DNA from: Firmicutes bacterium UBA4845
GTDB taxonomy: Bacteria; Bacillota; Clostridia; Tissierellales; Sedimentibacteraceae
Direction: 5' to 3'
Length of the DNA: 64,000 bases
Assembly: GCA_002399975.1 (NCBI GenBank)
Contig: DHER01000114.1
Span: forward strand, 999-64,998
Below are positions 3,575 through 41,445 of this stretch, in pieces (the stretch's first letter is position 1; each line of letters opens with the position of its first letter). A program made the translations under genes and the position numbers. The notes under the pieces are model-generated. The model saw only the letters and a program-made list of their open reading frames with translations. It made no database searches and was not told the origin of the DNA.

Positions 3575-3608
3575 AAAGCCCCTCAGAAGGTTAGTTCTGA
3601 GGGGCTTT
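3575..3608. terminator. bidirectional intrinsic terminator
   Basis: AAAGCCCCTCAGAA-GGTTAG-TTCTGAGGGGCTTT perfect stem. Confidence 0.85.
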
Positions 3609-3668
3609 TATCAAAGTACTGAAGAAATTTCCTTTTAGTCTGAGAGAACTGTAATTTTAATTGTAAAT

Positions 3669-5384
3669 TTATTCAATCCAACTTGCAACTTTTTCCGGAT
3701 TTTTATCAATCCAATTTTGAGCAGCAACGGTTGGACCAACGTCTTGAAGTTCTAACATGACACTTTGCATATCTTCAACAGTCCAGTTAAAGTTATCTAT
3801 TACACGATAAACTTCAGGCATATCTTCTTCAAGGCCTTCTCTGGCAAATGAGACGACAAACTCACCTTCACCCATAGTCAGCTTGGGATCTTCTAAGATC
3901 TTCAAATCATATTTTTCATACATCCAATGAGGTTTCCAGCCGGTTGTAATAAAGTCTTCTTTACTGGCTATGGCTTTGTCCAGCTCTGCCAGCATGGCAC
4001 CCGTGGATGACGTGCTTAATGTCCAATCACTTAAATTTTCATAATCATTCATTAGTTTCTGGGCCAAAGCGGTGACACCTGCTCCTGGCTCAATTCCTGT
4101 AATAGTTTTATTCGCTTCATCCGTTAAATCGGCTATAGAATTGACATCCATGTAGGCAGGCACGGTTATCCCGTTAATAGCACCTTCCAAATTAGGCCCA
4201 AGGTTAATCATTTGATCACCATATTGTTCATATAAAAAACCGTGTGAATCAGGTAACCATGGAGCCACTGTGGCATCTGCTGTACCGCTGGCAATCGAGC
4301 TGAATACAATAGCTGGATCGAGCTCAGAGATTTTAACCGTATATCCCAAATCCTCTAAAACAATTTTTATCACATTGGCAGAAGCAATTTCACTATCCCA
4401 TTGAACACTAGCTAAGGTAACTGTTTTATCATTATCTTGATCAAGAGAATAATAAATTGTGCCACTTACCAAGAATAAAATGACTGCTAAAGATCCTGCC
4501 AATATGGCATGTTGCCTTTTTTTAGCCTGTTTAGGACTTGTTGCCCTGTCAGTTTTGTTGACATTTTGAGTAAAGCGGTCAATGATGATTGCTAAGATAA
4601 CTAAAGCTGAACCATTAACAAATCCATTTCCTACTTCTGCTCTTTGTAGTGCCTGTAACACTCCTTCTCCTAGCCCTGGAGCACCAATCATTGAAGCTGT
4701 AACGACCATCGACAAAGCCAACATTGTGGTCTGGTTGATTCCTGCAAAAATCGTATTTTTAGCCAGTGGCAATTCAAGTTTAATCATTTTTTGCCAACCG
4801 GTACTGCCAAATGAGTCAGAAGCTTCGGTTAATTCCTCAGGTATTTGGCGTATACCTAAATTTGTGAACCGTACGGTCGGCGGCAAAGCAAAGATAACGG
4901 ATGCGAAAACACCCGGTACCATGCCAATACCAAAGAAGGCAACGGCTGGAATTAAGTAAACAAAGGAGGGCATAGTTTGCATAAAATCAAGAATTGGTGT
5001 AATGACCCCTTTGGCACGTTCACTTTTTGACATCCAAATACCTAATGGTATACCCAATATAACTGAAATTATTGTAGCAATAATAACCAGCGTGAGAGTA
5101 TTAATTAAATTAATCCATAGGTTCTGGTTTAGTACAAAAAGAAGACCAATAAATGTAAAAACCGTTAAACTAATTTTTTTGTTTGATATAAAATATATAA
5201 TTATAGACAATACAATTATAAAAATAAGTGGTGGAATTATAAGTAAAGTTTCAACCATCCCGTTCATCACAGTGCTTCCAACTGTTTGAATGGAAGCAAA
5301 GAAACCGGCAAGTGTAGTCGTTAACCAATTGGTAAACATTTCAATCCATTCAGCCAATGGAAGTGGCGTTTGTAAAAATGTCAT
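3669..5384 (-). CDS. opuAB: glycine betaine ABC transporter, fused permease and substrate-binding protein (OpuAB/BusAB type)
   Basis: LDFMQTMPSFVYLIP, EAA-like loop, C-terminal binding domain with WLPDSH and TGWKPHWM. Confidence 0.9.
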   Translation of the reverse strand: MTFLQTPLPLAEWIEMFTNWLTTTLAGFFASIQTVGSTVMNGMVETLLIIPPLIFIIVLSIIIYFISNKKISLTVFTFIGLLFVLNQNLWINLINTLTLVIIATIISVILGIPLGIWMSKSERAKGVITPILDFMQTMPSFVYLIPAVAFFGIGMVPGVFASVIFALPPTVRFTNLGIRQIPEELTEASDSFGSTGWQKMIKLELPLAKNTIFAGINQTTMLALSMVVTASMIGAPGLGEGVLQALQRAEVGNGFVNGSALVILAIIIDRFTQNVNKTDRATSPKQAKKRQHAILAGSLAVILFLVSGTIYYSLDQDNDKTVTLASVQWDSEIASANVIKIVLEDLGYTVKISELDPAIVFSSIASGTADATVAPWLPDSHGFLYEQYGDQMINLGPNLEGAINGITVPAYMDVNSIADLTDEANKTITGIEPGAGVTALAQKLMNDYENLSDWTLSTSSTGAMLAELDKAIASKEDFITTGWKPHWMYEKYDLKILEDPKLTMGEGEFVVSFAREGLEEDMPEVYRVIDNFNWTVEDMQSVMLELQDVGPTVAAQNWIDKNPEKVASWIE

Positions 5385-6657: not shown

Positions 6658-6896
6658 AAAGCATACATCCTGGAAGTGCGTTATACCTTAGAAAGCATCA
6701 AGCATTAAGATGACAAAATTTTTTTTTAATTGTTCTCTTATTATGCACAATTTTTCTATCAATAAACTTGAGTGTTGATTATATTTCCCTATTGTTTTAT
6801 TCATAATGATAGCATATAATATAGGATAATATGTAAGTTACCGTCGATTTCAAAATACACCATTTGCTCATGGAGAGTATAGGGAGGATCTGTATT

Positions 6897-7253
6897 ATGG
6901 ATAAATCTAATTTAGAAGTACCAAAGGATAATAATATGACTTGTAATGAAACGGTAGATAGCCACAGTGAAAAAAAACACGTTCATAGTCATAAACACCA
7001 AAGTACAAAGGCAGTATTAAATAGATTGTCTCGTGCAAGCGGGCATCTGGAATCGGTAAAACGTATGATAGAGGGTGGAAAGGACTGCAGTGAAGTATTG
7101 ATTCAGCTGTCAGCCGTAATAGCAGCCCTTAATAATGCAGGCAAGGTTATTTTAAAAGATCATTTGGAACATTGCATTGTGGATGCAGTCGAGTCAGGAG
7201 ATAAAGATGCCATAACAAATCTGAATAAGGCAATTGATAGTTTTATAAAATAA
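6897..7253 (+). CDS. CsoR/RcnR-family metal-sensing repressor (InrS-like, His-rich N-terminus)
   Basis: HVHSHKH, NRLSRASGHL, DCSEVLIQL, DHLEHC; start moved to ATG 6897 after a GGAGG SD. Confidence 0.85.
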   Translation: MDKSNLEVPKDNNMTCNETVDSHSEKKHVHSHKHQSTKAVLNRLSRASGHLESVKRMIEGGKDCSEVLIQLSAVIAALNNAGKVILKDHLEHCIVDAVESGDKDAITNLNKAIDSFIK

Positions 7254-7300: not shown

Positions 7301-7329
7301 AAGGCAGTCATAAATTTTGGCTGCCTTTT
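7301..7329 (+). terminator. intrinsic terminator
   Basis: AAGGCAGTCA...TTGGCTGCCTTTT. Confidence 0.65.
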
Positions 7330-7368: not shown

Positions 7369-7384
7369 GATGCAATAATGCATC
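7369..7384. promoter_or_regulatory. putative upstream activator sequence (UAS)
   Basis: Palindrome GATGCA-ATAA-TGCATC about 65 bp upstream of a -24/-12 promoter; motif recurs upstream of the other island promoters. Confidence 0.55.
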
Positions 7385-7446
7385 TTATAAATGATAAGCA
7401 ATAGTATATTAAAATAATTTCTATTGAAATTTCAACATTGTATAAC

Positions 7447-7462
7447 TGGCATAATTATTGCT
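7447..7462 (+). promoter_or_regulatory. sigma54 -24/-12 promoter of abfD
   Basis: TGGCATAATTATTGCT, exact GG-N10-GC. Confidence 0.85.
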
Positions 7463-7497
7463 ACATACATAGAAGAACTATTTGGGAGGATAATATA

Positions 7498-8949
7498 ATG
7501 ACTTTAAAAACCGGTGAACAGTATATAGAAAGTATAAGAAATATGAAAATGCAGATTTATATGTTTGGAGAAAGGGTGGAAAGTTCTGTTGACAATCCGA
7601 TACTTTGCCCTTCCTTGAATTCGGTAAAAGCAACCTACGATTTGGCACAGATGCCTGAATACGAAGATCTAATGACGGTTACATCTTCCGTTACGGGAAA
7701 TAAAATTAACAGATTTACTCATATTCATCAGAGCACGGAAGATCTTATAAAGAAAGTAAAAATGCAAAGATTGTTAGGGCAGAAAACTGCTTCCTGCTTT
7801 CAAAGATGTGTAGGTATGGATGCTTTTAATTCTGTATATAGTACAACATATGAAATTGATAAAGCATACAATACACAATATCATAGAAACTTTGTTAATT
7901 ATATGAAATATGTTCAGGAAAATGATTTGACGGTTGATGGGGCAATGACAGATCCTAAAGGGGACAGATCACTGTCACCAGGTAAGCAGTCTGATCCGGA
8001 TTTGTTTTTAAGAGTTGTGGAAAGAAGAACCGATGGAGTAGTGGTGCGTGGTGCTAAAGCTCACCAGACAGGTATTTGTAATTCTCATGAAGTACTGGTA
8101 ATGCCAACAATTGCTTTAACCTTTGAAGACAAAGATTATGCCATTTCATTTTCGGTCCCTGTTGATACAAAAGGAATAATAATGATAATCGGGAGACAGT
8201 CCTGTGATACAAGGAAGCTTGAAAATTCGCCTATAGATGTTGGAAATTCAAAATATGGAGGGGTTGAAGCATTAACCATATTTGACAATGTATTTGTACC
8301 AAATGAAAGGATTTTTCTAAACGGAGAAACTGATTTTTCCGGAATGATGGTTGAAAGATTTGCAGGATACCACAGGCAAAGCTATGGAGGATGCAAAGTG
8401 GGAGTTGGAGACGTGCTTATTGGTGCAGCGGCATTAGCATCAGAATATAATGGGGTTCAAAAAGCATCACATATAAAAGATAAGCTGATTGAAATGACTC
8501 ACTTGAATGAGACACTGTATAGCTGCGGTATAGCATGTTCTGCAGAGGGTCATAAGACTGAATCGGGTAACTATATTATAGATTTGTTATTAGCGAATGT
8601 TTGCAAGCAAAATGTAACAAGGTTTCCTTATGAAATAGCAAGGATAGCCGAAGATATTGCGGGAGGACTAATGGTAACGGCCCCTTCCGAAAAAGATATG
8701 AGAGATCCGGTTTTGAGTGAATATATCAATAAGTATCTCCGGGGTGTTGACGGTGTTTCTGTAGAGAATAGGATAAGAATATTAAGACTAATAGAGAATT
8801 TGACTTTAGGTACTGCTGCGGTTGGATACAGAACTGAATCCATGCATGGAGCAGGTTCACCCCAGGCACAGAGAATAATGATAGCCAGGCAGGGAAACAT
8901 AAATGGTAAAAAAGAGCTTGCAAAATCAATAGCACGAATAAATGATTAG
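7498..8949 (+). CDS. abfD: 4-hydroxybutyryl-CoA dehydratase / vinylacetyl-CoA isomerase
   Basis: [4Fe-4S] ligands in CFQRCVGMD and HRQSYGGCK; AMTDPKGDRS; ESMHGAGSPQAQR; ATG 7498 after GGGAGG. Confidence 0.88.
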   Translation: MTLKTGEQYIESIRNMKMQIYMFGERVESSVDNPILCPSLNSVKATYDLAQMPEYEDLMTVTSSVTGNKINRFTHIHQSTEDLIKKVKMQRLLGQKTASCFQRCVGMDAFNSVYSTTYEIDKAYNTQYHRNFVNYMKYVQENDLTVDGAMTDPKGDRSLSPGKQSDPDLFLRVVERRTDGVVVRGAKAHQTGICNSHEVLVMPTIALTFEDKDYAISFSVPVDTKGIIMIIGRQSCDTRKLENSPIDVGNSKYGGVEALTIFDNVFVPNERIFLNGETDFSGMMVERFAGYHRQSYGGCKVGVGDVLIGAAALASEYNGVQKASHIKDKLIEMTHLNETLYSCGIACSAEGHKTESGNYIIDLLLANVCKQNVTRFPYEIARIAEDIAGGLMVTAPSEKDMRDPVLSEYINKYLRGVDGVSVENRIRILRLIENLTLGTAAVGYRTESMHGAGSPQAQRIMIARQGNINGKKELAKSIARIND

Positions 8950-9146
8950 TTAAAATAAAATATTTTCCCGGCATTCCCAAAGAAAGTTCCGGGAAATTTT
9001 TTAGTGTAATTTTTAGAACTGCATTGAGAATTTTGAAACATTGATGTGACATTTAAGAGATTCATGCTTTAAAATTTGTTTTTTAAAATGTAAAATATGA
9101 TATAATATTATATGTTAAAAACTTATCATGCGTGAAGGAGGATTAG

Positions 9147-10877
9147 GTGGATATCAAAAAATTAATCATTAAAGACGCCAAATTAAAAGAGTTTATTTTG
9201 AAAAATCCAAACGGAATTATTGCAACGGATTCTAATAATCAAATCATTTATATTAATCAGGAAGCTGAAAATCTGCTTGGCCTGAAGAAAAAAGATATTA
9301 TGAATAATGACATTTTTTGCGTAATCCCTGATTTCAGAAATATCAAGTTCAATTGTGGAAAAGTGTATCTTATTGATGAAAACGATTTGACATACGATAT
9401 AATACCTATTCAGCTATATAACGAAAATGAAGAATCTATAAATATTTATATTATTATTGAAATTGATGAGATAAATAAATTGGAATCAGAACTTAAACAC
9501 CAGAAAACAATTATAAATGAACTTAATGAGATTTTGGAAGGCTCATATGACGGTATTCTTGTTACTGACGGAGATGGTAAGGTTCTATTAGTTAACACCT
9601 CTTATGAGAGAGTAGCTGCAATAAAGAAGGAGGATATGTGGGGAAAAACCATGCGAGATTTAATGAATCCTGTATGGATGCCAAATTCAGTTGCTTATGT
9701 TGTTATTGAGCAAAAACAGGCAGTTTCAAAACGGCAGGTTACTAAAGACGGGAGGCATATTATTGTTACAGGAATGCCTGTTTTTGATAAGAAAGGCGAA
9801 GTTAAAAAAGTAGTGATTAATGCAAGAGACATCAGCGAAATATATGAGCTTCGTGAAGAATTATTAAGAGAAAAACAGATTAATCGTACATATTTGGAGA
9901 ATTATAAGGAGTTTATTGAAAAAAAGAAAAATAATAGCGAGTGTATTTTAGCTGTTAGTAAACCTATGCAGGATGTTTTGGCATTGGCTCAAAGAATTGC
10001 AAATTTTGAGGCTACAGTTCTAATATTGGGAGAGTCAGGTGTAGGGAAAGAGGTTGTCGCAGATTATATACATAAAGAGAGCTTAAGGCGGGACAAGCCT
10101 TTTATTATTAACTGTGGGGCAATTCCGGAAAATCTGTTAGAGTCAGAGCTTTTTGGATATGAAAAAGGTGCCTTCACCGGAGCTAACCAGTCCGGCAAAG
10201 AGGGGTTATTAGAAGCTGCAAACGGCGGAACTGCTTTCTTGGATGAAGTAGGTGAATTAACATTGGATTTGCAGGTTAAACTGTTGAGATTTTTGGAAAC
10301 TAGAGAAATTAGAAGAGTGGGTTCCGTAGATGGCAAGATTGTGGATGTAAGAGTTATTGCTGCTACTAACCGTGATTTGGATGATATGGTTGAAGAGGGA
10401 ACTTTTAGAGAGGATTTGTTTTACAGGTTAAATATTGTAAGAATCAATGTTTCTCCGTTAAGAAAAAGAATTGACGATATAGCACCTCTAAGTATGATGT
10501 TTTTATATCAATTTAATAAGAAATATAACCAGAATAAGGAGCTGACTATAGATGTAATTAAAGAATTAGAAAAATATAATTGGCCGGGTAATATAAGAGA
10601 ACTAAAAAATGCAATCGAAAATATGGTTATTGTGAGTAACAATGAATATTTGCAGACGGAAGATATTCCATGGAATAAAGAAAAAAACTCTGGTAGAAAA
10701 ATAGTAAGTATGATAAACAATACAGAAGATCTGACCTTAATGGAAGCAACTGAATTATTAGAAAAAACCATGCTGGAAAAAGCAAAGCTTAAATATCAGA
10801 CAACACGAGCAATTGGAGAAAATTTAGGGATTGACCAATCTACAGTTGTACGTAAAATAAAAAAGTATAATTTATAG
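9147..10877 (+). CDS. sigma54-dependent enhancer-binding protein (PAS-PAS-AAA+-HTH)
   Basis: [39 protein letters not shown]-terminal HTH. Confidence 0.92.
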
Positions 10878-10918
10878 CCTGGATTTTATACCAGGTTTTT
10901 AATAAGTTATGGATGTTT

Positions 10919-10953
10919 GATGCAATAGAGCATAAGTAATTAATAATGCATCA
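10919..10953. promoter_or_regulatory. putative UAS (full site plus half site)
   Basis: GATGCAATAGAGCATA, 12 nt, TGCATCA. Confidence 0.5.
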
Positions 10954-11105
10954 TTTATTTTTAATAAATTTCATGGGAACAAAATATAAAACAGCAGGAT
11001 TGTATCAGCTTTATTGTTATTTTTTTAATACGTTTGATGATTGCATGTGCATTTTAACAGTATTATTAGGTAGAGATTAGATTTTATTTATAAAACTTAT
11101 ATAGC

Positions 11106-11121
11106 TGGAACGAAAATTGCA
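11106..11121 (+). promoter_or_regulatory. sigma54 -24/-12 promoter
   Basis: TGGAACGAAAATTGCA, exact GG-N10-GC. Confidence 0.8.
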
Positions 11122-11162
11122 ATAAATATACATACATATAAATTATATATGGAGGAATAGAA

Positions 11163-12398
11163 ATGCCAATACTTACAGAATCGGCAAAAGACATTGCAAT
11201 ACCGGAAATGTTTCCAGTAATGCAGCTTTTCCCCGACGTTAAGATTAAAGATGTTTACAGTACCGCCAAAGCTGAAATAAAGAAAAAGCAATTAAATAAT
11301 TTAATCAGACCCGGTAAAAGTGTTGCAGTTCTCGTAGGTAGCAGAGGTATAGCCAGCCTTAAATACGTTGTGAAAGCAGTTATAGAAATGCTCATTAATA
11401 TGGGAGTTAAGCCTTTTATAGTACCTGCTATGGGAAGTCATGGAGGGGGAGTTGCTAAAGAGCAAAAAAAAATCATTGAAAGCTATGGCATAACAGAGGA
11501 ATATTTGGGCATACCTATCTGTTCATCTATGGAGACAACAATTATAGGAGAAACTGCCGATAAAATTCCGATTCATATTGATAAGTTTGCGGATAGAGCA
11601 GACTATATAGTACCAGTTGTGAGAATAAAGGCACATACCGACTTCAGCGGTCCAATTGAAAGCGGACTATGTAAAATGCTTTCAATTGGAATAGGAAAAC
11701 ATAACGGGTGTTCAAGACTGCATCAAGAAGGTTTTTCCAACTTCAGCAAATTAATTCCCAATGCTGCATCTGTAGTATTAAATAAAAAAAATGTCCCTTT
11801 TGGCGTTGCAATAATTGAAAATGCCCATGAGAACGTACATACAATTTGTGCCGTTCCCGGAAGTGATATTTTAAGTAAAGAACCGTCTTTGCTTTCTTTG
11901 AGCAAATCACTTATGCCAAGGTTATATTTTGACCATATTGATGTTCTTATCGTTGAACAAATAGGTAAGGACATTACGGGAGCCGGCATGGATCCCAATA
12001 TTACAGGGCGCACCACCAGCGGATCTGTACAAAACTTCTCAGGTCCTTCAATCAGTCGTATAGTTGTACTGGACTTAACTGAAAAAACGCACAATAATGC
12101 TGTTGGAGTAGGAAATGCTGACTTTATAACAAAAAAACTGTACGATAAAATCGATCTGATTTCAACTTATTCCAATGCCATTGCATCTGGAAATCCAGGT
12201 TCCGCAAATATCCCTGTAGTATTGGACAGTGAACGTGAAGCAGTTCTGGCGGCAATACAAACATGCCCTGGAATTGATCATAATAATGCAAAAATAGTTA
12301 AGATAAAGGATACACTTCATCTTGTAAACATTGAGATATCTGAAAACTTACTTCCATATTGCCGTTCAAGAAAAAATTTCTATGTACCCGAGCATTAG
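11163..12398 (+). CDS. LarA-superfamily (lactate racemase N-terminal/DUF2088-like) protein
   Basis: GSRGIA, PAMGSHGG, KAHTDF..ESGLCKM and KHNGCSRLH align by eye with the LarA His/His/Lys/His residues. Confidence 0.7.
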   Translation: MPILTESAKDIAIPEMFPVMQLFPDVKIKDVYSTAKAEIKKKQLNNLIRPGKSVAVLVGSRGIASLKYVVKAVIEMLINMGVKPFIVPAMGSHGGGVAKEQKKIIESYGITEEYLGIPICSSMETTIIGETADKIPIHIDKFADRADYIVPVVRIKAHTDFSGPIESGLCKMLSIGIGKHNGCSRLHQEGFSNFSKLIPNAASVVLNKKNVPFGVAIIENAHENVHTICAVPGSDILSKEPSLLSLSKSLMPRLYFDHIDVLIVEQIGKDITGAGMDPNITGRTTSGSVQNFSGPSISRIVVLDLTEKTHNNAVGVGNADFITKKLYDKIDLISTYSNAIASGNPGSANIPVVLDSEREAVLAAIQTCPGIDHNNAKIVKIKDTLHLVNIEISENLLPYCRSRKNFYVPEH

Positions 12399-12423
12399 AC
12401 TTTATATTTTTAAGCCTATAAAA

Positions 12424-12468
12424 AAATAAGCGTCCCGGACGTAAGTGTTACGTCTGGAATGCTTATTT
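12424..12468. terminator. bidirectional terminator between convergent units
   Basis: AAATAAGCGTCCCGGACGTAA-GTG-TTACGTCTGGAATGCTTATTT long hairpin. Confidence 0.75.
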
Positions 12469-12492
12469 ATAAATTTGCCGCTCTTAATTACT

Positions 12493-12900
12493 TTACAGCT
12501 TTTCATATACCGATATATACATGCGGAAAAAGAAAAAACCGAAAATACATCCTAACGCAAATATGGATATTAGTCCTGCTGCAACCGAAACAAAAAGACT
12601 TGGCGAAATATCGTTAACATAAACTATCTTAATTGTAGCAGTCAACCTGCTTGCTAATGCTGCCACACCCCAATAAACAACTGAAACCATAACTAAATTT
12701 TTATTTGCCGCCTTATATCTTATAATAATATCAAATCCAAATCCCAACGCAATGCATATGGCACATGCGAATAATAATTTTAAAGCAAGCCCGTTTCCAA
12801 TTAAATCTTGTATGCCACTTTTCTTAATCATAAATGATAATATTATTAAAGAAATTGTTGAGAAAAATATCATTATTGCAGCGCTTACATGTTTTTTCAA
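12493..12900 (-). CDS. hypothetical ~4-TM membrane protein, downstream of the permease
   Basis: Four hydrophobic stretches; GAGGAGG SD; same orientation as the permease, 74 bp gap. Confidence 0.6.
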   Translation of the reverse strand: MKKHVSAAIMIFFSTISLIILSFMIKKSGIQDLIGNGLALKLLFACAICIALGFGFDIIIRYKAANKNLVMVSVVYWGVAALASRLTATIKIVYVNDISPSLFVSVAAGLISIFALGCIFGFFFFRMYISVYEKL

Positions 12901-12974
12901 AAAATGCCCCTCCTCTTACGGTTTAACTTATGTATGATCATTATGGCAGCAGTAATTGTATTCGTGCTGAATGG

Positions 12975-14357
12975 TTAAAATATAATAACTGTATAGTATA
13001 TTGCAAATATGATGAAGAAAATTATACCCAGTATATTAAAAATTATGCTTCCCTTTGACGGTTTAAATGTATCAGGCAATACTTTCAAATTTAGAATAAG
13101 TACTACAATAGCCAATATAGGGAGATTATACGCTCCATCAATAATGGATTGAGCCTGAAGTAAGACCAAAGGCTGAAATTTCATTAAAGAGAAAAACAAT
13201 GAAATCAGACTTTGTACGGTAAACACTATTACCCAGATTCTGTACCCTTTTTTATCGTCAATATTTTTCATACGTTTTGGTGCAAGGATTCTACTCGCAT
13301 CATTCCAGACTCTAACCGTACCGTCTTCAAATGTCAAATATGCTGCAAACATTACCTCGGCCGCTGCTATAATATATATCCATTCACCAAGTGGACCAAC
13401 TAACTCCACAACTATTTGTGCCTGGACTAGAACCAGATCCATCCCGGACGGAGCAAGTCCTCTCGGTCTAAGTACTGCATACCCGCATAGGAAAAAACAA
13501 ATACATACTATAAATGTTAGTACTGTCCCAACTCCTAAATCGATCTTTAAAAGCTTAAGCCAGTTTCTGCCTTTTCTTATTTCATCAGGTGTATCGTCGC
13601 AGGTTACCGACATTATATTATCATATTCATCTTTCCTTTTATTATTTAAACTTAATCCATATCCTTTTTCCCTTATCCAGTAACTGTACCAAATTGTGCC
13701 TATACATCCGGCTCCTACAAAACCCGTAAGAGACATCATATCCGTCCATCCCTGTGTATCGGAAGGAAGTCTTGGAATAACCATATTTGAAAGTAATTCA
13801 GCGTATCCGCTTAACGGAGTAAAGGCTATTGCAGAGATCATTACACACAAAGTCATTGTGCAGGTTCCTAATGTGCATATTTTTTCAAGTATGCTGTATT
13901 TACCGAAATATAGCAACGAAGAAACAAAAATTGTAATAATCACCGTAATAACAGCTAAATTTCCACCGAATACATAGCTAACCAGGGTAGCTCCAGATAC
14001 TGTATATGAAGATATTGTTACTGTTTGCCATGTAATCGGCAAAAATGCAAACCAAAATACTAAAAATTTCGATAATTTGGATACGCCTCCCAAGATTGTC
14101 TGACCGGTAAAAATAGTATATCTGCCTACTTCATAATTAATAAAAAACTTGATAAAAATAAGAAAAAGTATCATCCACGCAAACGTTAACCCGTGTACTG
14201 CTGAATTTCTTGTTGTAAGTATTAATTCTCCTGTACCTATTGCAGCTGCAGACCATACCAAACCAGGTCCGACTTTTTTCAGCAATTCTTTTGTGTTATT
14301 AGTAATATCTGGCATAATCTCTGTTTGGATTTCTTGTAATTCTGCATTTTTTGCCAT
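12975..14357 (-). CDS. NRAMP-like (YcsG-type) secondary transporter
   Basis: GPGLVWSAAAIGTGEL..HG..FAW N-terminal motif; about 11 TM segments; lacks the DPGN metal motif. Confidence 0.7.
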   Translation of the reverse strand: MAKNAELQEIQTEIMPDITNNTKELLKKVGPGLVWSAAAIGTGELILTTRNSAVHGLTFAWMILFLIFIKFFINYEVGRYTIFTGQTILGGVSKLSKFLVFWFAFLPITWQTVTISSYTVSGATLVSYVFGGNLAVITVIITIFVSSLLYFGKYSILEKICTLGTCTMTLCVMISAIAFTPLSGYAELLSNMVIPRLPSDTQGWTDMMSLTGFVGAGCIGTIWYSYWIREKGYGLSLNNKRKDEYDNIMSVTCDDTPDEIRKGRNWLKLLKIDLGVGTVLTFIVCICFFLCGYAVLRPRGLAPSGMDLVLVQAQIVVELVGPLGEWIYIIAAAEVMFAAYLTFEDGTVRVWNDASRILAPKRMKNIDDKKGYRIWVIVFTVQSLISLFFSLMKFQPLVLLQAQSIIDGAYNLPILAIVVLILNLKVLPDTFKPSKGSIIFNILGIIFFIIFAIYYTVIIF

Positions 14358-14464
14358 TTAAATATTAATCCTCCTATATGTTTTATTTCGTAAATGATAT
14401 GAGTTTAACTCAAAAAATTTATACCTCCTTTTTAACAACATTTTTCTTACGATAGATAAAATGA

Positions 14465-14480
14465 TGCAATTATCATGCCA
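14465..14480 (-). promoter_or_regulatory. sigma54 -24/-12 promoter of the permease
   Basis: Minus strand TGGCATGATAATTGCA. Confidence 0.85.
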
Positions 14481-14619
14481 AAGCTTTTTATATTTCAGGG
14501 TATACAGAGTATAAAAGTATAAAAACAAAATTTGTCTATTCTTTGACATAGTCTTTATTATTATAGTAATTTCATCAATATAGTTATATAAAAATCTCGG
14601 TAATATATCTGTTAATTCT

Positions 14620-14654
14620 GATGCGTTTTTGCATGTATACTTAATCTCGCATCA
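14620..14654. promoter_or_regulatory. putative UAS shared by divergent sigma54 promoters
   Basis: GATGCGTTTTTGCATG, 12 nt, CGCATCA; same spacing as at 10919. Confidence 0.5.
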
Positions 14655-14911
14655 CAATTCAATGCAAAATCAGAGTAAAAAATAATACATCCATTATTAC
14701 GATTATTACAATCAATGAAAAAGTAATCTACAAATAAACTAATTCTCCATATATGGAAAAATATACAGAAAATGTTGGAATATTAAGTTATTCTTAAAAG
14801 TTCAAATCACACCTTAAATTAAGTAAGAAAGTCACAATTAGATCAAGCCTATATGCTAAATCATCCAAAGGAACTTAAATCAATATGTGCCAAGTTTAAA
14901 TTAAATGTTAA

Positions 14912-14927
14912 TGGCATAACGATTGCA
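14912..14927 (+). promoter_or_regulatory. sigma54 -24/-12 promoter of the SDR gene
   Basis: TGGCATAACGATTGCA. Confidence 0.85.
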
Positions 14928-14977
14928 TATTACTATTGTTAAAATAATACTTTAGAATGAAATAAAGGAGTCAATAG

Positions 14978-15736
14978 TTGAAAAATTTGTTTGATATTAA
15001 AGGTAAAAAAGCCATAGTAACGGGAGGCAGCAGAGGACTTGGCAGAGGTATGGCACAAGGACTTCATGATGCTGGCGTTGAGCTTGTTATTATGGGAACA
15101 ACTAATAGAATATTGAAGATTGCAGAAGGAATAGATTCACCTGATGCACCTGTGCATGGTGTGATAGCAGATTTCAATAATTCTTTTGAAGTTGAAAAAG
15201 CATTTGATGAAGCAATGAGTATTTTAGGGGATTTAGATATTTTGGTAAATAATGCCGGAATGCAAATACGCCATCCTTCCTCTGAATTTCCGCTGAAAGA
15301 CTGGCAGAATGTTTTGAATGTTAATTTAACTTCGGCATTTATAATGAGCCAGAAAGCAGGAAATGTAATGATGAAAAAAAGGTATGGAAAAATTATAAAC
15401 ATTGCTTCGTTATTGAGTTTTTCCGGAGGCATTAATGTACCTGCATATGCTGCAAGCAAGGGAGGCATAGCACAATTGACAAAGGCATTATCCAACGAGT
15501 GGGCAGCTAAATGCATCAATGTAAATGCCATAGCTCCCGGATATATGGATACTGATAATATTGCAGATATAAAAACAGATGATATCAGAAACGCTCAAAT
15601 TTTAGATCGTATACCGGCAGGAAGATATGGAACACCGGAAGACATGATTGGGACAGTCATATTTTTAGCTTCACATGCCTCAGATTACATTCATGGGTCT
15701 GTATTACTGGTTGACGGTGGCTGGATGGGCAGATAA
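14978..15736 (+). CDS. SDR oxidoreductase, KduD/gluconate 5-dehydrogenase-like
   Basis: TGGSRGLG, NNAG, YAASKGG, NAIAPGYMDT; KduD-like LTKALSNEWA and VDGGWMGR end. Confidence 0.85.
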   Translation: MKNLFDIKGKKAIVTGGSRGLGRGMAQGLHDAGVELVIMGTTNRILKIAEGIDSPDAPVHGVIADFNNSFEVEKAFDEAMSILGDLDILVNNAGMQIRHPSSEFPLKDWQNVLNVNLTSAFIMSQKAGNVMMKKRYGKIINIASLLSFSGGINVPAYAASKGGIAQLTKALSNEWAAKCINVNAIAPGYMDTDNIADIKTDDIRNAQILDRIPAGRYGTPEDMIGTVIFLASHASDYIHGSVLLVDGGWMGR

Positions 15737-15874
15737 TTATTCAATATTTATAAACTGTTGTATTAGTTTAGTCAAAAATAAGAATATCATACTGACCTTA
15801 TTTTTTGAAGGCATTTTCATTTGAATTGGAATTCCTAATGCAATAGTTTTTTTATGATTATTTTTAAAGAATTA

Positions 15875-15890
15875 GATGCATAAATGCATC
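15875..15890. promoter_or_regulatory. putative UAS
   Basis: Palindrome GATGCA-TAAA-TGCATC plus a nearby TGCATAATGCA. Confidence 0.55.
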
Positions 15891-16050
15891 ATAAGACAAA
15901 ATGCATAATGCAAAACAGATAAAAATTAAAACATTTTGAATTTATTCGGGTGATTTTTTGCAATATGAAATTATTTTATTAATTCAAATTTTAATGTTAT
16001 TCAGTTTTATTATAACATGATACATATTCTTTTCCATAAAGAAGCGTTGA

Positions 16051-16066
16051 TGGCATGTTTATTGCT
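16051..16066 (+). promoter_or_regulatory. sigma54 -24/-12 promoter of the 11-gene operon
   Basis: TGGCATGTTTATTGCT. Confidence 0.85.
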
Positions 16067-16136: not shown

Positions 16137-17276
16137 ATGGATTTCAGTTTGACAAAAGAACAGGAAATGGTCAGGAAAATGGTAAGAGAATTTGCCGTTA
16201 ATGAAGTTGAACCAATTGCGGCGGAAATAGATGAAGAAGCGAGATTTCCATTTGAAACCATGGAAAAGGCAGGGAAATTAGGACTTATGGGGATGCCGTT
16301 TCCACGAGAATACGGAGGAGCAGGTGCTGATTATATATCATATATAATGGCCATTGAAGAATTATCCAAAGCCTGTGGTTCAACAGGAGTCATTGTACAG
16401 ACACATTGTGCATTGTGCGCCTGGCCTATAATGACTTACGGAACAGAGAAACAAAAACAAAAATATCTGCCGGATTTACTCTCAGGTAAAAAGCTGGGGG
16501 CGTTTGGTTTAACTGAACCGGGTGCGGGAAGTGATGCTGCGGGAATTCAGACAGCAGCAGTAGACAAAGGAGATTACTGGCTGTTAAATGGTAGCAAGAT
16601 TTTTATAAGCAGCGGCGGCATAGCAGATGTTTATGTAGTTATGGCGATGACAGACAGAAGTAAAGGCACAAGAGGAATTAGTTCATTCATAGTAGAAAAA
16701 GGAATGGAAGGCTTTACAGTACCTAAAAAAGAAAACAAAATGGGAATCAGAGGTTCAGTAGCTGCCGAGCTGTTGTTCGAAAATGTGAAGCTGCCTAAAG
16801 ATAATTTGCTTGGCCAATTGGGAAAAGGGTTTAAAGTGGCAATGTCATCACTAGACGTAGGCAGGTTAGGAGTAGCAGCTCAGGCTCTGGGTATAGCTCA
16901 GGGGGCGTTTGATGAAACCATAAAATATATGAAATCAAGAAAGCAATTTGGGAAAACATTAAATAAATTTCAGGCATTGTCATTTGAAATGGCGGAAATG
17001 AAAACAAAGATAGATGCGGCAAGATTTATATTATATAATGCCGCTGACAGAAGAGAAAAAGGTATGCCAAGCACAATTGAAGCTGCCCAAGCAAAGCTGT
17101 ACTGTTCTGAGACGGCAATGTATGTAACTACAAAGGCTGTTCAATTCCACGGAGGTTATGGATATATAAAAGACTATCCTGTTGAAAGAATGATGAGAGA
17201 CGCAAAGATAACAGAAATATATGAAGGAACATCAGAAGTTATGAAGATGGTCATTTCTGGTGACATATTTAAATAG
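16137..17276 (+). CDS. acyl-CoA dehydrogenase (Bcd-like)
   Basis: FGLTEPGAGSDA, KMGIRGS, RQFG-like RKQFGK, KITEIYEGTSEV with catalytic Glu; ATG 16137 after AAGGAGG. Confidence 0.92.
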   Translation: MDFSLTKEQEMVRKMVREFAVNEVEPIAAEIDEEARFPFETMEKAGKLGLMGMPFPREYGGAGADYISYIMAIEELSKACGSTGVIVQTHCALCAWPIMTYGTEKQKQKYLPDLLSGKKLGAFGLTEPGAGSDAAGIQTAAVDKGDYWLLNGSKIFISSGGIADVYVVMAMTDRSKGTRGISSFIVEKGMEGFTVPKKENKMGIRGSVAAELLFENVKLPKDNLLGQLGKGFKVAMSSLDVGRLGVAAQALGIAQGAFDETIKYMKSRKQFGKTLNKFQALSFEMAEMKTKIDAARFILYNAADRREKGMPSTIEAAQAKLYCSETAMYVTTKAVQFHGGYGYIKDYPVERMMRDAKITEIYEGTSEVMKMVISGDIFK

Positions 17277-17288
17277 GAGGTAAAGGAA

Positions 17289-18089
17289 ATGGCATTAAAA
17301 ATAATAGTTTGTGTAAAGCAGGTACCAAACACTAATGAGATAAAAATAGATCCGGTAAAAAAAACACTTATAAGAGAAGGAGTTGAAAGTATATTAAATA
17401 ATGACGACGCAAATGCTCTTGAAGAAGCATTAAAAATAAAAGATAAATATCCTAATACCCATATTACATTAATAACAATGGGACCTCCACAGGCTAAGGA
17501 CATGTTACTGGAATGTCTGGCAATGGGAGCTGATGATGCGGTGCTGTTATCTGACAGAGCATTAGGAGGTTCTGACACATGGGCTACTTCAAATGCCCTG
17601 TCTGCCGGAATAAAAAATATAGGAGATTATGACATAATATTTTCAGGAAGACAGGCAATTGACGGTGATACAGCACAGGTTGGACCTCAGATTGCAGAAA
17701 AACTTGGAATTCCTCAGGTGACTTATGTAACAGATTTTAATATAGAAGAAGACTTGAGGTCTATTACAGTTAAAAGAGATCTTGAAGACGGATATGAAGT
17801 AATAAAACTTGAGACACCTTGTTTGTTGACTGCAGTTAAAGAACTGAACAAGCCAAGATACATGTCAGTAAGAGGTATATTTGATGCAACTAAAAAAGAA
17901 ATTAGTACTTGGTCTGCAAAAGATATAAACATTTCAACAGATAAAGTGGGATTGGAGGCGTCTCCAACAAATGTGTTCCGCTCTTTCACACCTATTACAA
18001 AGGGAAAGGGCAAGCTGATAGAAGCGGATACAGAAAAAGAAACGGCACGAAAACTTTTGGCAGAGCTAAAAAGCAAACATATAATTTAA
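17289..18089 (+). CDS. etfB: electron transfer flavoprotein beta subunit
   Basis: [28 protein letters not shown]. Confidence 0.93.
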
Positions 18090-18105
18090 CACGGAGGGTA
18101 GAAGA

Positions 18106-19233
18106 ATGGCAGTATTGACAGGTAAGGATAATTATAATGTTGATATTTCATCTTATAAGAATATCTGGGTTTATGCGGAGCACAGGCAGGGAAAATTGAT
18201 GAACGTATCACTGGAATTAATAGGAGAAGGAAACAGACTTGCAAAAGAAATGGGAGAAGCAAAGGTATATGCTTTGCTGGCAGGCAATAATATTGGTAAT
18301 CTTTCAAAAGAATGTTATGAGTATGGAGCAGACGGAGTATATTTAATTGAAGATCCATTGCTTGAAAAATATACAACGGAAGGTTACACAAAAGTAATAG
18401 TAGATGCAATTAATGAGTATAAGCCGGAAATAGTATTGTATGGAGCAACACATATAGGCAGAGATTTAGCTCCGAGAATTGCTGCAAGATTAAATACAGG
18501 ATTAACGGCAGACTGTACAAGGCTGGATGTTAAAATGTCTACATATAAGGAATATGCAGAAAAATATACGACATTGAATACCTCTAATTTAGATGCTAAT
18601 TCAACAGAAACGAGATTGCTGCAAACAAGACCTGCTTTTGGAGGAAATCTTATGGCAACAATCATATGCCCAAAGACAAGGCCGCAAATGTCGACGGTAA
18701 GACCGGGAGTAATGAAGAAGAGGCAAAGAGAAGAAGGAGCAGAAGGTGAATTAATAAAGGTTCAGCCACAAATTTTGGCAGAGTTTATTCATACTCAAGT
18801 TGTAGAAATAGTAAAGTCGGCAAAAGAAGTGATATCACTTACAGATGCTGAAATAATCTGTTCAGGCGGTCGGGGGCTTGGCAATGCGGAAGGATTTAAG
18901 CTGATACAAAAATTGGCAGATAAAACAGGAGGAACTGTAGGTGCGTCAAGGGCTGCAGTTGATGCAGGATGGATAGATCAATCTCACCAGGTAGGTCAGA
19001 CCGGCACCACTGTGAAACCTAAAATATATTTTGCGTGCGGAATATCGGGGGCAATTCAGCATTTAGCCGGAATGCAGACGTCTGATATTATAATTGCCAT
19101 AAATAAAAATCCGGATGCACCTATTTTTGAAATTGCTGATTATGGAATAGTAGGGGATCTATACAAAATAATCCCACAGATAATTGAGGAGTGGGATAAC
19201 ATTGATTTTCTTTATGATGCAGGCATTATTTAA
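18106..19233 (+). CDS. etfA: electron transfer flavoprotein alpha subunit
   Basis: [34 protein letters not shown]. Confidence 0.93.
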
Positions 19234-19293
19234 AAGTGCTTTGCTTTATACGCGGAAGTGATAATTATTTAACGATACAAAGGAAGTGAGAAA

Positions 19294-19728
19294 ATGTTTT
19301 ATTTAAATAGGGAACAAATTAAAGAAATAATTCCTCACCGAGATCCAATGCTTCTAATTGACGAGGTTTTGGAAATGATACCGGAAAAAAGTATTAAAGC
19401 AAGATTTTTTGTTAATTCAGACAGAGAAATTTTCAAAGGCCATTTTCCAGGACAGCCTGTATTCCCAGGAGTTTATACGGTGGAGTGTATGGCACAGGCA
19501 TCGGATATTCTGCTGTTATCCATAGATAGATACAAAGGTACCATTCCATTATTTATTGGAATAAATAATGTTAAATTTCTGAGTAAAATAAATCCTGGTG
19601 ACACCATTGAAATAAATTCGAAAATTATCGTGGAACGAATGAATAAAGGTATAGTAACATGTTGTGCAGAAGTTTTTAACAGCGGAGAACCGGCTGCTAC
19701 TGGAGAAGTAACATTGGCAATGCGTTAG
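19294..19728 (+). CDS. FabZ-family hot-dog (R)-3-hydroxyacyl-thioester dehydratase
   Basis: IPHRDPMLLID, FKGHFPGQPVFPGV..ECMAQ. Confidence 0.85.
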   Translation: MFYLNREQIKEIIPHRDPMLLIDEVLEMIPEKSIKARFFVNSDREIFKGHFPGQPVFPGVYTVECMAQASDILLLSIDRYKGTIPLFIGINNVKFLSKINPGDTIEINSKIIVERMNKGIVTCCAEVFNSGEPAATGEVTLAMR

Positions 19729-19754
19729 ATTATAATATTTTGAGGGAATCAGAT

Positions 19755-20525
19755 ATGAGTGAACAAATTTTTATGAAAATCATTGATCAAATTGCAACAA
19801 TCAGCATAAACAGATCTGAAGTCTTAAATGCTTTATCAAAGGAAATCATTGATGAAATGGACGAAATGATTGAAAGCATAAAAAACAACAAGGATATCAG
19901 AGTACTTGTTTTCTACAGTAAAGACAATTTTGCAGCAGGAGCAGATATTAAGGCAATGGCTAAATGCAATTCTAAGCAGGCGAAAGAATTTGTTTTTACA
20001 CAGACCTACAACAAGATATATGATTTGTCTATTCCAACAATTGCTGCTATTGATGGATACGCATTTGGAGGAGGACTGGAGCTTGCTTTAACATGTGATT
20101 TCAGAATATCCAGCAAAAATTCTAAAATGGGTCTGACCGAACTGAATCTTGGAATTATGCCGGGGGCCGGAGGTACTGTAAGGTTAGCAAGAATAATAGG
20201 CGAGTCAAAAGCCAAAGAAATGATTTTTCTGAGCAAGATTGTAGATGGTGAAGAGGCGGAAAAAATAGGACTTGTCAATGCTGCAGTTGAAAAAGAAGAA
20301 TTGTATTCAACTGCATTAAGATGGGGTGAAAAATTAAAACGAAAAAGCAGTATATCTCTTGCATATGCAAAAAAATCAATAGAAAACGGAATTTGTGATA
20401 CGGATATTCATTCTTCCACCAATATGGAATCAGAAATTTGGGCGTCATTGTTTGACACATATGATCAGAAGGAAGGAATGAATGCCTTTATAGAAAAGAG
20501 GAAGCCAAAATTTTTAGGTAAGTAA
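19755..20525 (+). CDS. enoyl-CoA hydratase (crotonase family)
   Basis: FAAGADI oxyanion loop; both catalytic Glu present (GGGLEL, GLTELNLG). Confidence 0.88.
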   Translation: MSEQIFMKIIDQIATISINRSEVLNALSKEIIDEMDEMIESIKNNKDIRVLVFYSKDNFAAGADIKAMAKCNSKQAKEFVFTQTYNKIYDLSIPTIAAIDGYAFGGGLELALTCDFRISSKNSKMGLTELNLGIMPGAGGTVRLARIIGESKAKEMIFLSKIVDGEEAEKIGLVNAAVEKEELYSTALRWGEKLKRKSSISLAYAKKSIENGICDTDIHSSTNMESEIWASLFDTYDQKEGMNAFIEKRKPKFLGK

Positions 20526-20551
20526 GAATTATAAGTCGGGAGGAAGATAAA

Positions 20552-21759
20552 TTGAAAAATTGTGTTATAACAAGTGCAGCCAGGACAGCTGTAGGAAAAT
20601 ATCTGGGAAGTTTAAAAACAGTAGAAGCACAGGACTTGGGAAGTGCAGTTTTAAAGGAAGCTGCCAAAAGATCAAATATAGCATTAGATCAAGTTGACCA
20701 GGTTGTTATGGGTGACGTGTATGGCTATACACCTAATGTTTCAAGATGTGCGGCACTAATTGCCGGTATACCTATAACAACTCCGGCATACACAGTGGAC
20801 AGGCAGTGTGCTTCTTCACTTCAGGCAGTGGTAAGTGCCATATATGAAATAGCTGCCGAAGAGGCGGATGTAATTTTGCCGGAGGAGTAGAAGTTATGTC
20901 AAGGCTGACCTATTACCTGGATCCTTCAGCAAGGTATGAGCCGCTTAAGTTAGGCAATAAGACTCTCCATGATACGTTCACCACTGGAGTTACCCTTGTT
21001 CAGCCGAGATCCTTATACCCCGGATTAAATATGGGCATTACTGCTGAAAATGTTGCAGATAAATATAACATTTCAAGAGAGGAGCAGGACTTGTTTGCCT
21101 TGGACAGCCAGCGTAAGACGAAAGCAGCAATGGATGCCGGAAGATTTAAAGAAGAAATAGTTCCATATGAAGTGAAGCTTAAGAAGAGCAGTTTTATATT
21201 TGATACTGATGAGCATCCCAGACCGGATACAACTATGGAAATACTTAAAAAACTGAAACCTGCATTTAAGGAAGGAGGAACGGTGACAGCAGGCAACTCA
21301 TCTGGAATGAACGATGGAGCCTCTGCAGTTGTTGTTATGTCAGAAGAAAAAGCAATTGAACTCGGTTGTAAGCCTTTAGTCAAAATTATAAGCCATAGCA
21401 GCGTAGGGGTTGACCCGGCTATAATGGGGATAGGCCCGGTACCGGCAATAAAAAAAGCTCTGAAAAAGGCCGGTCTGACTTTGGAAGATATAGATTTGTT
21501 TGAAATAAATGAAGCATTTGCCGCACAGTCATTAGCTGTTCTGAAGGAACTTGGTATGAATATGGGTAGCAGACCTTATGAGAGAGTAAATGTAAATGGA
21601 GGGGCTATTGCACATGGACATGCACTGGCAAACAGCGGAACAAGATTGCTGACAACGCTGATTTACGAGCTAAAAAGAAGAAATGCCCGTTACGGAGTCG
21701 TAAGCCTTTGCATTGGCGGAGGACAGGGAATGGCAATGGTAGTTGAAAACTGCAGGTAG
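20552..21759 (+). pseudogene. acetyl-CoA C-acyltransferase (thiolase) split by a single-base deletion at about 20874-20878
   Basis: ORF 20552-20890 (QCASS) plus ORF 20896-21759 ([16 protein letters not shown]); one extra base restores VI(F/L)AGGVEVMS and a 402-aa thiolase. Confidence 0.85.
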
Positions 21760-21788
21760 AAATATTATAAATTGATTTGGGAGGATAT

Positions 21789-22646
21789 ATGGAAATAAAA
21801 AAAGTTGGTGTTGTTGGCGCCGGAATGATGGGAGCGGAAATTGGTCTTTGTTTTGCAAAATGTGGTTATGAGGTTGTATTAGTTGACAGAACTGTTGAAC
21901 TGGCAGAGAAAGGTAAGGAAAAACAGGCATCTGCTTTAGATAAGAGCATAAAAAAAGGAAAATTTGATGCTGATGAAAGAGAAGGTGTTTTAGGCAGAGT
22001 AACAGCAACATGTGATTATAAAGATTTACATGACTGTGACCTGGTAATTGAGGCTGTTTTTGAATCGTATGATGTTAAGACTGCAACCTACAAGGAGTTA
22101 GAAAAAGTATGTAATCCTGAATGCATAATTGCTTCAAATACATCAAGTATTTCAATTACAAAACTGGCATCAGGAGTAAGCAGAGAAAGAGCAGAAAAAT
22201 TTATAGGTACTCACTTTAATTCGCCTGCAAGCATAATGAAGTTAGTTGAAGTAATCCCGGGACACCTGACCGACGGTGGGGTTACAAACCAAGTTATTGA
22301 TATGCTAAAGCATATTGGAAAAGAGCCTGTTAAAGTGAAAGATGTGACAGGATTTGCATTAAACAGGTTATTCCACGTATTTTCGTCTGAGGCATGTCGT
22401 CTTTTAGAGGAAGGCGTAGCAACGGCAGAGGATATAGATAAGATATGTGTGTATGGGCTTGGGCATCCGGTAGGAATCTTCAGGCTTCTTGATAATATGG
22501 GACATGATTTAAATATTTCCGTAGATAAAATTCTATTTGATGCCTATGGCGAAAGATTCAGACCCAGCCAGGAAATGCAGCGCCTTGTAGATGCCGGGTT
22601 ATATGGCAAAAAATCCGGTGAAGGTTTTTATAAATATGATAAATAA
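21789..22646 (+). CDS. 3-hydroxyacyl-CoA dehydrogenase
   Basis: GAGMMG Rossmann fold, IEAVFE, SNTSSISIT, catalytic His in GTHFNSP, GKKSGEGFY. Confidence 0.9.
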   Translation: MEIKKVGVVGAGMMGAEIGLCFAKCGYEVVLVDRTVELAEKGKEKQASALDKSIKKGKFDADEREGVLGRVTATCDYKDLHDCDLVIEAVFESYDVKTATYKELEKVCNPECIIASNTSSISITKLASGVSRERAEKFIGTHFNSPASIMKLVEVIPGHLTDGGVTNQVIDMLKHIGKEPVKVKDVTGFALNRLFHVFSSEACRLLEEGVATAEDIDKICVYGLGHPVGIFRLLDNMGHDLNISVDKILFDAYGERFRPSQEMQRLVDAGLYGKKSGEGFYKYDK

Positions 22647-22752
22647 ATACTTGAGTAAATTTGTTGCAATACAATTGTTAAAATAAATGCAATTCTGAAT
22701 GGGAGCAATTAATATAAAGTATTTACTTAGTAAAAAGGAAAGGTGGAACAGA

Positions 22753-25106: not shown

Positions 25107-25118
25107 GGGGGACAATAT

Positions 25119-25889: not shown

Positions 25890-25923
25890 TAAATAAAAGT
25901 ATATTTTTATTAAGGAGATTAGT

Positions 25924-40724: not shown

Positions 40725-40787
40725 AATTTATTTTTTGTCATCAACACATGAATAAAGAAGTATCATCGTTTAACATAAGTATTCAAT

Positions 40788-41441: not shown

Positions 41442-41445
41442 TATT

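Follow-up and report, generated by a model that had tools for sequence, protein, structure and literature searches.

The 64-kb window examined here, the whole stretch of contig DHER01000114.1 under study, carries the gene of a PAS-containing activator and, on either side of it, five units with putative sigma-54 (-24/-12) promoters of their own (Table 1). The units are abfD, a LarA-family isomerase gene, a transporter unit, a short-chain dehydrogenase (SDR) gene and a long operon that extends from acd and etfBA through the genes of a 2-hydroxyacyl-CoA dehydratase to that of a CoA-transferase. The regions upstream of the promoters contain palindromes of the form GATGC-N6-GCATC, or imperfect versions of it. 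Based on these elements and on their behaviour in related loci, the five units very probably constitute one local sigma-54 regulon, in which the protein encoded at 9147-10877 would act through the palindrome.

The promoters are characterized by GG and GC doublets 10 nt apart and, in extended form, by the consensus TGGCAY-N5-TTGCW. Exact matches to this consensus occur five times in the window, while 0.15 are expected from dinucleotide-preserving shuffles, none of which (0 of 100) reaches five. Four of the matches (7447, 14480 on the minus strand, 14912 and 16051) precede units of the proposed regulon, and the fifth, at 41018, serves a separate AcoR-type unit. A sequence-only reading had proposed exact GG-N10-GC promoters for all five units of the regulon; pattern search and direct reading locate every one of them, although the one at 11106 departs at one position from the extended consensus, to which the other four are exact. 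Its TGGAAC variant is present among published clostridial sigma-54 promoters. All the promoters are intergenic and on the strand of the next gene, the start codon of which lies 41-123 nt downstream behind a visible ribosome-binding site. Promoters of the -24/-12 type cannot open without an activator. No rpoN gene was found among the annotated genes of the window by family scans of its proteins; the presence of two intact activators in the window implies that the host genome carries a sigma-54 gene. A consensus scan for sigma-70 promoters and terminators gave 69 promoter-like hits (47 expected) and four terminator-like hits (4.6 expected), and is uninformative in such AT-rich DNA.

The conserved core of the palindrome is GATGC-N6-GCATC, positions 6 and 11 merely preferring A or T. 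The exact core occurs twice in the window, where about 0.015 occurrences are expected, both times upstream of a sigma-54 promoter; with at most one mismatch it occurs seven times against 1.22 expected, a number reached in none of 100 shuffles. The TGCA-based palindrome that the sequence-only reading placed in each intergenic region is exact at 7369 and 15875 and imperfect at 10919 and 14620, which have two mismatches to its 12-letter pattern, GATGCA-N4-TGCATC, and one to the core. The additional half-site, (T/C)GCATCA, that it described 12 nt after the 16-mer at the latter two positions is indeed there, as TGCATCA starting at 10947 and CGCATCA starting at 14648. The composite site at 14620-14653 is about 140-173 nt from the promoter at 14480 (minus strand) and 292 nt from that at 14912.

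Table 1. Genes, promoters and predicted activator sites of the proposed regulon and of the AcoR-type unit in the 64-kb window
Feature	Position	Strand	Basis and remarks
Enhancer-binding protein, PAS-PAS-AAA+(GAFTGA)-HTH_50, proposed regulator	9147-10877	+	Pfam, alignment A1, structure matches
abfD, 4-hydroxybutyryl-CoA dehydratase / vinylacetyl-CoA isomerase	7498-8949	+	785 bits to PDB 1U8V; Pfam HpaB_N, HpaB
LarA-family nickel-pincer-cofactor isomerase, NCBIfam group 22	11163-12398	+	NF052515, 502 bits (cut-off 400)
Nramp-like transporter	12975-14357	-	Family match; from promoter 14480 (-)
Small protein without family match, same unit as transporter	12493-12900	-	Open reading frame
SDR, KduD-like, under equivalog cut-off	14978-15736	+	Family scans
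Long operon, about 12 genes, ~11 kb	16137-27228	+	Inter-gene gaps of at most 60 nt
Promoter of abfD, TGGCATAATTATTGCT	7447-7462	+	51 nt 5' of ATG 7498 (ribosome-binding site GGAGG); kept in L001, L002
Promoter of larA-like gene, TGGAACGAAAATTGCA	11106-11121	+	One mismatch to extended consensus, GG/GC intact; ATG 11163 57 nt on
Promoter of transporter unit, TGGCATGATAATTGCA	14480-14465	-	ATG 14357 123 nt on
Promoter of SDR gene, TGGCATAACGATTGCA	14912-14927	+	TTG 14978 66 nt on
Promoter of long operon, TGGCATGTTTATTGCT	16051-16066	+	Pattern match; alignment with L001, L002
Predicted activator site 1, exact palindrome GATGCAATAATGCATC	7369-7384	.	78 nt before abfD promoter; top XanR-matrix score in window; orthologous sites in L001, L002 align
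Predicted composite site 2, GATGCAATAGAGCATA, three half-sites (GATGC-N6-GCATA-N13-GCATC)	10919-10952	.	187 nt before larA-like promoter
Predicted composite site 3, GATGCGTTTTTGCATG (GATGC-N6-GCATG-N13-GCATC)	14620-14653	.	Between divergent promoters
Predicted activator site 4, GATGCATAAATGCATC (exact palindrome), with an additional ATGCAT 10 nt further on	15875-15906	.	176 nt before acd promoter; second-best XanR-matrix score in window
Second activator, GAF-AAA+-HTH_8	38730-40724		Family scans
Exact sigma-54 promoter TGGCATATAAATTGCT	41018		Serves acoABCL-type operon

The sites were compared with those of four loci found by exact protein match and about 50 loci from metagenomes, all of which encode orthologues of the activator that share 49-78% identity with it; a metagenome scan with the single activator protein returned nothing, while one with alignment A2 retrieved the loci. 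For 38 distinct exact sigma-54 promoters, the 300 bp on the upstream side were searched without bias for every 5-mer paired with its reverse complement at a spacing of 0 to 30. The top dyads are ATGCA-N4-TGCAT and GATGC-N6-GCATC, with ten occurrences each (0.28 and 0.59 expected), so the palindrome of the sequence-only reading is what motif discovery in orthologous upstream regions returns first. The next group, with four to five occurrences each, includes GATGC-N24-GCATC (four against 0.09 expected), and both the palindrome and the third half-site are thus recovered. In 711 kb of orthologous loci, 19 of 36 exact palindromes lie within 300 bp upstream of sigma-54 promoters, a portion that makes up 3.6% of this DNA (binomial P=1.5e-18). 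In relatives, pairs of promoter and palindrome precede acd, hgdA-like, abfD, iron-containing alcohol dehydrogenase, dctP, altronate-dehydratase-like, hbd, CoA-transferase and 2-hydroxyacid-dehydrogenase genes. The motif is also linked to the activator gene itself: a site (composite, or with at most one mismatch to the core) is found within 300 bp 3' of the activator stop codon in 29 of 48 distinct loci, whichever operon follows, and is exact in 22 of them, the chance of an exact site per 300 bp being less than 0.001 by our estimate from the shuffle mean. No exact site occurs in 160 kb of paralogue and unrelated control loci. Directly observed are the sequence elements and the degree to which they exceed chance, as well as the fact that, over some 50 related loci, they are conserved and linked to the activator gene. 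They support the view, put forward in the sequence-only reading, that the scattered and divergent units belong together and that the local PAS activator is their regulator.

The arrangement of the elements is conserved as well. When the acd upstream regions of the window and of two relatives (L001, from a Sedimentibacter metagenome-assembled genome (MAG), and L002) are aligned, the palindrome, an extra AAAATGCAT 10 nt further on, the -24/-12 element and the ribosome-binding site show no change, while the DNA between them has drifted. The same is true of the abfD upstream regions, which have no extra block. The composite form GATGC-N6-GCATA-N12-TGCATC recurs with identical spacing in L001 just after the activator gene, a near-identical one (GATGT for the first GATGC) is located upstream of L002:13019, and variants are present in L003 and L004. 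A central site shared by divergent sigma-54 promoters is also found in L004, L033 and L061.

Inverted repeats of this kind might instead act in RNA, as terminator or attenuator hairpins, or reflect chance symmetry in AT-rich DNA. The stretch 15875-15890 is flagged as terminator-like on the minus strand, and the sites at 7369 and 10919 are downstream of convergently ending genes. However, the letters of the half-sites are kept while the 6-nt spacer varies freely, with no compensatory change, the stems would be merely 5-6 bp long, and the gene upstream already has a proper terminator hairpin behind it, at 7301-7327. The enrichment at sigma-54 promoters (P about 1e-18) and the chance expectation of ~0.015 per window speak against accident. 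The hairpin reading was rejected because of the conservation of the half-site letters without covariation, and RNA structure or chance is scarcely credible as the origin of the palindromes.

A similar motif has been predicted before. In a study that reconstructed the regulons of sigma-54 for 57 genomes of Clostridiales (Nie, Dong & Yang 2019, BMC Genomics 20:565; PMC6615313), the XanR group of activators (Cbei_2099, CKL_3021, CTK_RS03630) controls operons beginning with abfD and nifU through sites such as GTTGCAATTATGCATA, GATGCATAATTGCAAC, GTTGCATACATGCATC and GATGCAATAATGCAGC, which correspond to GWTGCA-N4-TGCAWC; these sites are themselves computational predictions only, and no other activator group in the same table has a TGCA-type palindrome. 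The palindrome as the predicted site of the activator, a proposal of the sequence-only reading, therefore gains comparative support while being less new than was thought. A weight matrix built from nine published XanR sites, none of them from the window, with training-site scores of 18.4-22.8, was scanned over the 64 kb. It ranks the site at 7369 first (22.4) and that at 15875 second (22.3), in or above the training range, and the next hit scores 13.2; the site at 14620 is fifth and that at 10919 tenth.

The low ranks of the last two sites, alongside coding-region hits, would suit a reading in which all units depend on sigma-54 and yet do not form one regulon, the sites at 10919 and 14620 being non-functional and the larA-like, transporter and SDR genes being under another activator. 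It is also in keeping with such a division that the larA-like and Nramp-like genes are not under this type of control in most orthologous loci. Against it stand the form with three half-sites at the equivalent place in L001, its near-identical copy in L002 and the variants in L003 and L004, together with the enrichment of GATGC-N24-GCATC; furthermore, neither the dyad enumeration nor inspection of the regions revealed any other conserved dyad upstream of the larA-like, transporter and SDR genes. The significance of the sites at 10919 and 14620 comes from their position and their conservation in relatives, not from their score, and a regulon split in this way is unlikely.

The relationship of the activator to XanR was examined with loci that carry the published elements. 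A pattern made from the published sites of Clostridium kluyveri and C. tyrobutyricum retrieved C. tyrobutyricum, C. moutaii and two Clostridium MAGs. Locus L006 serves as a stand-in for the C. kluyveri-type XanR, as it carries the published CKL_3020 promoter, TTGGCATGAAAGTTGCTAA, together with the site GTTGCAATTATGCATA; since it holds these published strings, the activator next to them is an XanR orthologue. Both groups consist of PAS-AAA+-HTH activators encoded beside abfD, with a TTGGCAT-N5-TTGC promoter and a 16-bp TGCA-type palindrome; in the window, abfD has a predicted promoter and site of its own and adjoins the activator gene. The window protein, with 576 residues, has an extra N-terminal PAS domain, while XanR has one PAS domain and 495 residues. 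The two (XanR from L005 and L006) are 45% identical overall, 34-39% in the PAS domain, 55% in AAA+ and 44-46% in the HTH region, while among the orthologues of the window activator the corresponding values are 56-77%, 76-89%, 70-81% and 41-84%. The half-site also differs: in the family of the window it is GATGC, with A always at position 2 and position 6 free, whereas in Clostridium XanR it is mostly GTTGCA, and the exact core is absent from 32 kb of Clostridium XanR loci. The regulon in the window reaches beyond that of XanR to include the 2-hydroxyacyl-CoA dehydratase/beta-oxidation operon, the LarA-like enzyme, the SDR and the transporter. The hosts of the window family are Sedimentibacter- and Anaerovoracaceae-type anaerobes, unlike the genera of the XanR study, whose Table 1 includes no host of these types and whose supplement does not name Sedimentibacter (PMC6615313). 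Orthology with XanR was rejected on account of the low identity and the different domain architecture; by its sequence, the window activator is related to XanR, has a similar yet distinguishable motif, and is not a member of that orthologous group. No paper on sigma-54 control of abfD other than that of Nie et al. was found.

The similarity of the two motifs leaves room for another protein, such as a repressor or a paralogue of XanR type whose gene lies elsewhere in the genome, to bind the palindrome in front of otherwise genuine promoters. The HTH of XanR is as close to that of the window protein (44-46%) as are the HTH regions of its distant orthologues (41-49%), and a further sigma-54 promoter in L001, described below, hints at a second regulator in relatives. 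The motif nevertheless follows the activator gene directly in 29 of 48 loci irrespective of the operon that comes next, is missing from paralogue loci, and in Clostridium XanR loci does not take the exact GATGC-N6-GCATC form. Binding by another protein is accordingly regarded as improbable. The L001 promoter, TGGCATGATTTATGCT at 3752 (region 3590-3770), stands before nifU-AF_0334-PFOR and is preceded by GTTGCATTATTGCAAC and by more GTTGCAA repeats, that is, by the half-site of the Clostridium XanR type and not by GATGC; these sites may belong either to a second XanR-like regulator or to the same protein with relaxed specificity.

Several other observations also weigh against a single regulon under the local activator. 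Seventeen of the 36 exact palindromes have no promoter (at most one mismatch) within 300 bp, and in 19 of the 48 loci no site was found in the 300 bp that follow the activator gene. By score alone, the sites at 10919 and 14620 do not stand out from certain hits in coding regions. The site at 7369 is only about 70 nt from the -24 element of the abfD promoter, which is short for looping. On the RNA side, three runs cover the region as sparse Logan contigs only, without 5' ends. In fermentation and mud metatranscriptomes, contigs give low-level coverage of abfD, the activator gene, the larA-like gene, the transporter gene and acd.

The AcoR-type unit (38730-47194) provides an internal control. 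It codes for a Lin0512-family protein, E1alpha, E1beta, an NAD-kinase-like protein, E2 and E3, and so has the make-up of an acetoin dehydrogenase regulon of the acoABCL/AcoR type. Two long palindromes with a GTATCA...TGATAC core, at 40788-40829 and 40860-40906, are probably the sites of its own activator. There is no GATGC site at the 41018 promoter. With another activator and other palindromes, this promoter acts as a built-in control of specificity, and it was rejected as a part of the main regulon for the same reason. The AcoR/acoABCL regulon of Bacillus subtilis and Clostridium follows the same general enhancer logic as the main regulon, while the AcoR-type and main activators of the window are only 22% identical in the HTH region and have different upstream palindromes.

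Other known systems share some of these features. The LeuR regulon of Clostridioides difficile (hadAIBC-acdB-etfBA) likewise places a dehydratase, its activase, an acyl-CoA dehydrogenase and EtfBA under sigma-54 control, whereas its motif is listed among the 'distinct' ones and is not of the TGCA type (PMC6615313). PrdR, the proline reductase activator, is also a PAS-AAA+-HTH protein and gives the best NCBIfam match of the window activator (NF041552), but its sites are of the TGTC-N8-GACA type and its targets are unrelated; membership was rejected, as the score is 401.6 bits and the cut-off 795 bits. NtrC and NifA share the AAA+ domain with GAFTGA, dyad-symmetric sites that lie some 100-200 bp away from a -24/-12 promoter, and the control of several operons by one activator, and differ in that the paradigm is a phosphorylated response regulator, whereas the window protein is a one-component PAS sensor, and in the TGT-N10-ACA site.

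The activator itself has the domain features of an enhancer-binding protein of this class. Its AAA+ domain (PF00158, 226 bits) has the Walker A sequence GESGVGKE and the GAFTGA motif in alignment A1, and matches the solved structures of NtrC1, FleQ and PspF. Pfam places PAS_8 at residues 18-62, PAS at 125-229 and HTH_50 at 530-576. Orthologues with 49-99% identity occur in Sedimentibacter, Dethiosulfatibacter, Sinanaerobacter, Anaerovorax, Emergencia and many metagenome contigs, the closest named relative being a Sedimentibacter MAG protein (77%); a search with the HTH region only gave six close relatives, none of them a named protein of Clostridium. Among the orthologues in alignment A1, conservation is higher in the second PAS domain (residues 125-232) than in AAA+ and far higher than in the HTH region, which suggests one strongly conserved ligand. 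Reading and pattern search of the region upstream of the gene revealed neither a -24/-12 element nor a palindrome, so that autoregulation is unlikely and the protein is probably constitutive.

Regulation by this protein would follow the textbook sigma-54/enhancer pattern, with a motif that echoes the earlier XanR prediction. The PAS-PAS-AAA+-HTH protein, probably made constitutively, would bind as dimers to the GATGC-N6-GCATC palindromes, which precede the promoters by 58-290 nt and some of which have a third half-site 17-18 nt away. A small molecule sensed by the PAS domains would cause the ATPase ring to assemble; the ring would loop to the sigma-54 holoenzyme, its GAFTGA loops would contact sigma-54, and ATP hydrolysis would open all five promoters together. 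One composite site (14620-14653) would serve both divergent promoters, 14480 (minus strand) and 14912. Binding, oligomerisation, looping and ligand control are carried over in this scheme from activators of the NtrC/NifA/PspF type.

The genes under the promoters code for two predicted radical dehydratases together with functions that could feed and follow them. By its sequence, the product of 7498-8949 is predicted to be a genuine AbfD. The long operon codes, in its first part, for an acyl-CoA dehydrogenase, EtfB, EtfA, a FabZ-like dehydratase, a crotonase and a thiolase, and in the rest for a 3-hydroxyacyl-CoA dehydrogenase, the alpha and beta subunits of the 2-hydroxyacyl-CoA dehydratase, its activase and the CoA-transferase. 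The best models for the dehydratase subunits are HadB and HadC, with scores under their equivalog cut-offs (545 against 750 and 487 against 700), so the substrate is probably not 2-hydroxyisocaproyl-CoA. The thiolase gene (20552-21759) is split by a frameshift into open reading frames of 112 and 287 amino acids in different frames. A contig of run X7, from an unrelated study, has one T more after 20873, within a stretch of T, which by reckoning of the reading frames would restore the thiolase frame; run X1 has the form of the window, and the contigs of X5 and X6 break there. The split may reflect strain variation or an assembly error. A gene for a CsoR/RcnR-family metal-sensing repressor (6864-7253), which has its own hairpin at 7301-7327, is situated directly upstream of the regulon. 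The DNA runs that hold the window stretch come from fermentation, sludge, landfill and food-fermentation metagenomes. With a Sedimentibacter MAG as the closest named source of a related activator, the host of the window is probably an uncultured fermenter resembling Sedimentibacter.

The regulon could conceivably delimit an undescribed fermentation route of a C4 (or related) polyhydroxy or 2-hydroxy acid that uses both radical dehydratases and has the PAS domain as its sensor, a proposal that is tentative and rather doubtful, and to be treated as a lead, not a result. In such a route, the acid would be imported, the LarA-family isomerase, assisted by the SDR, would set its configuration at C2, and the CoA-transferase would activate it. 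The 2-hydroxyacyl-CoA dehydratase would act first, converting for example 2,4-dihydroxybutyryl-CoA to 4-hydroxycrotonyl-CoA, with reduction by Acd/Etf next; AbfD would then dehydrate 4-hydroxybutyryl-CoA to crotonyl-CoA, which would feed the formation of butyrate and acetate. The second PAS domain would sense the substrate or an intermediate of the route. LarA homologues racemise 2,4-dihydroxybutyrate (PMC11770544), and no paper was found on a route through 2,4-dihydroxybutyryl-CoA and 4-hydroxycrotonyl-CoA.

The genes around the activator differ among relatives. L004 (15046-17563), L033 and L061 (around 4900-5200) have an altronate/galactarate-dehydratase-like gene, a 2-hydroxyacid dehydrogenase gene and TRAP transporter genes with promoter and motif. 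In L003 (11843-17075), the activator gene is accompanied by a LarA-like gene and by genes for an FGGY kinase and a RuBisCO-like protein, and no site was found before those genes. These peripheral differences hint at sugar-acid-type substrates that feed a common CoA module. If the proposed route is real, the genes swapped among relatives (TRAP transporter, iron-containing alcohol dehydrogenase, 2-hydroxyacid dehydrogenase, altronate-dehydratase-like) would mark a modular catabolic family.

The comparison thus yields a well-supported predicted site, together with the co-regulated genes, for a widespread and uncharacterised family of activators in uncultured fermentative anaerobes, which are encountered in metagenomes of fermentation, sludge and pit mud. 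Of the evidence available, the shared motif speaks most strongly for a single pathway in which abfD, the LarA-family isomerase, the SDR, the transporter and the dehydratase/beta-oxidation operon act, and it makes both this pathway and its inducer testable. Its main value is the handle that it gives on a possibly new fermentation pathway.

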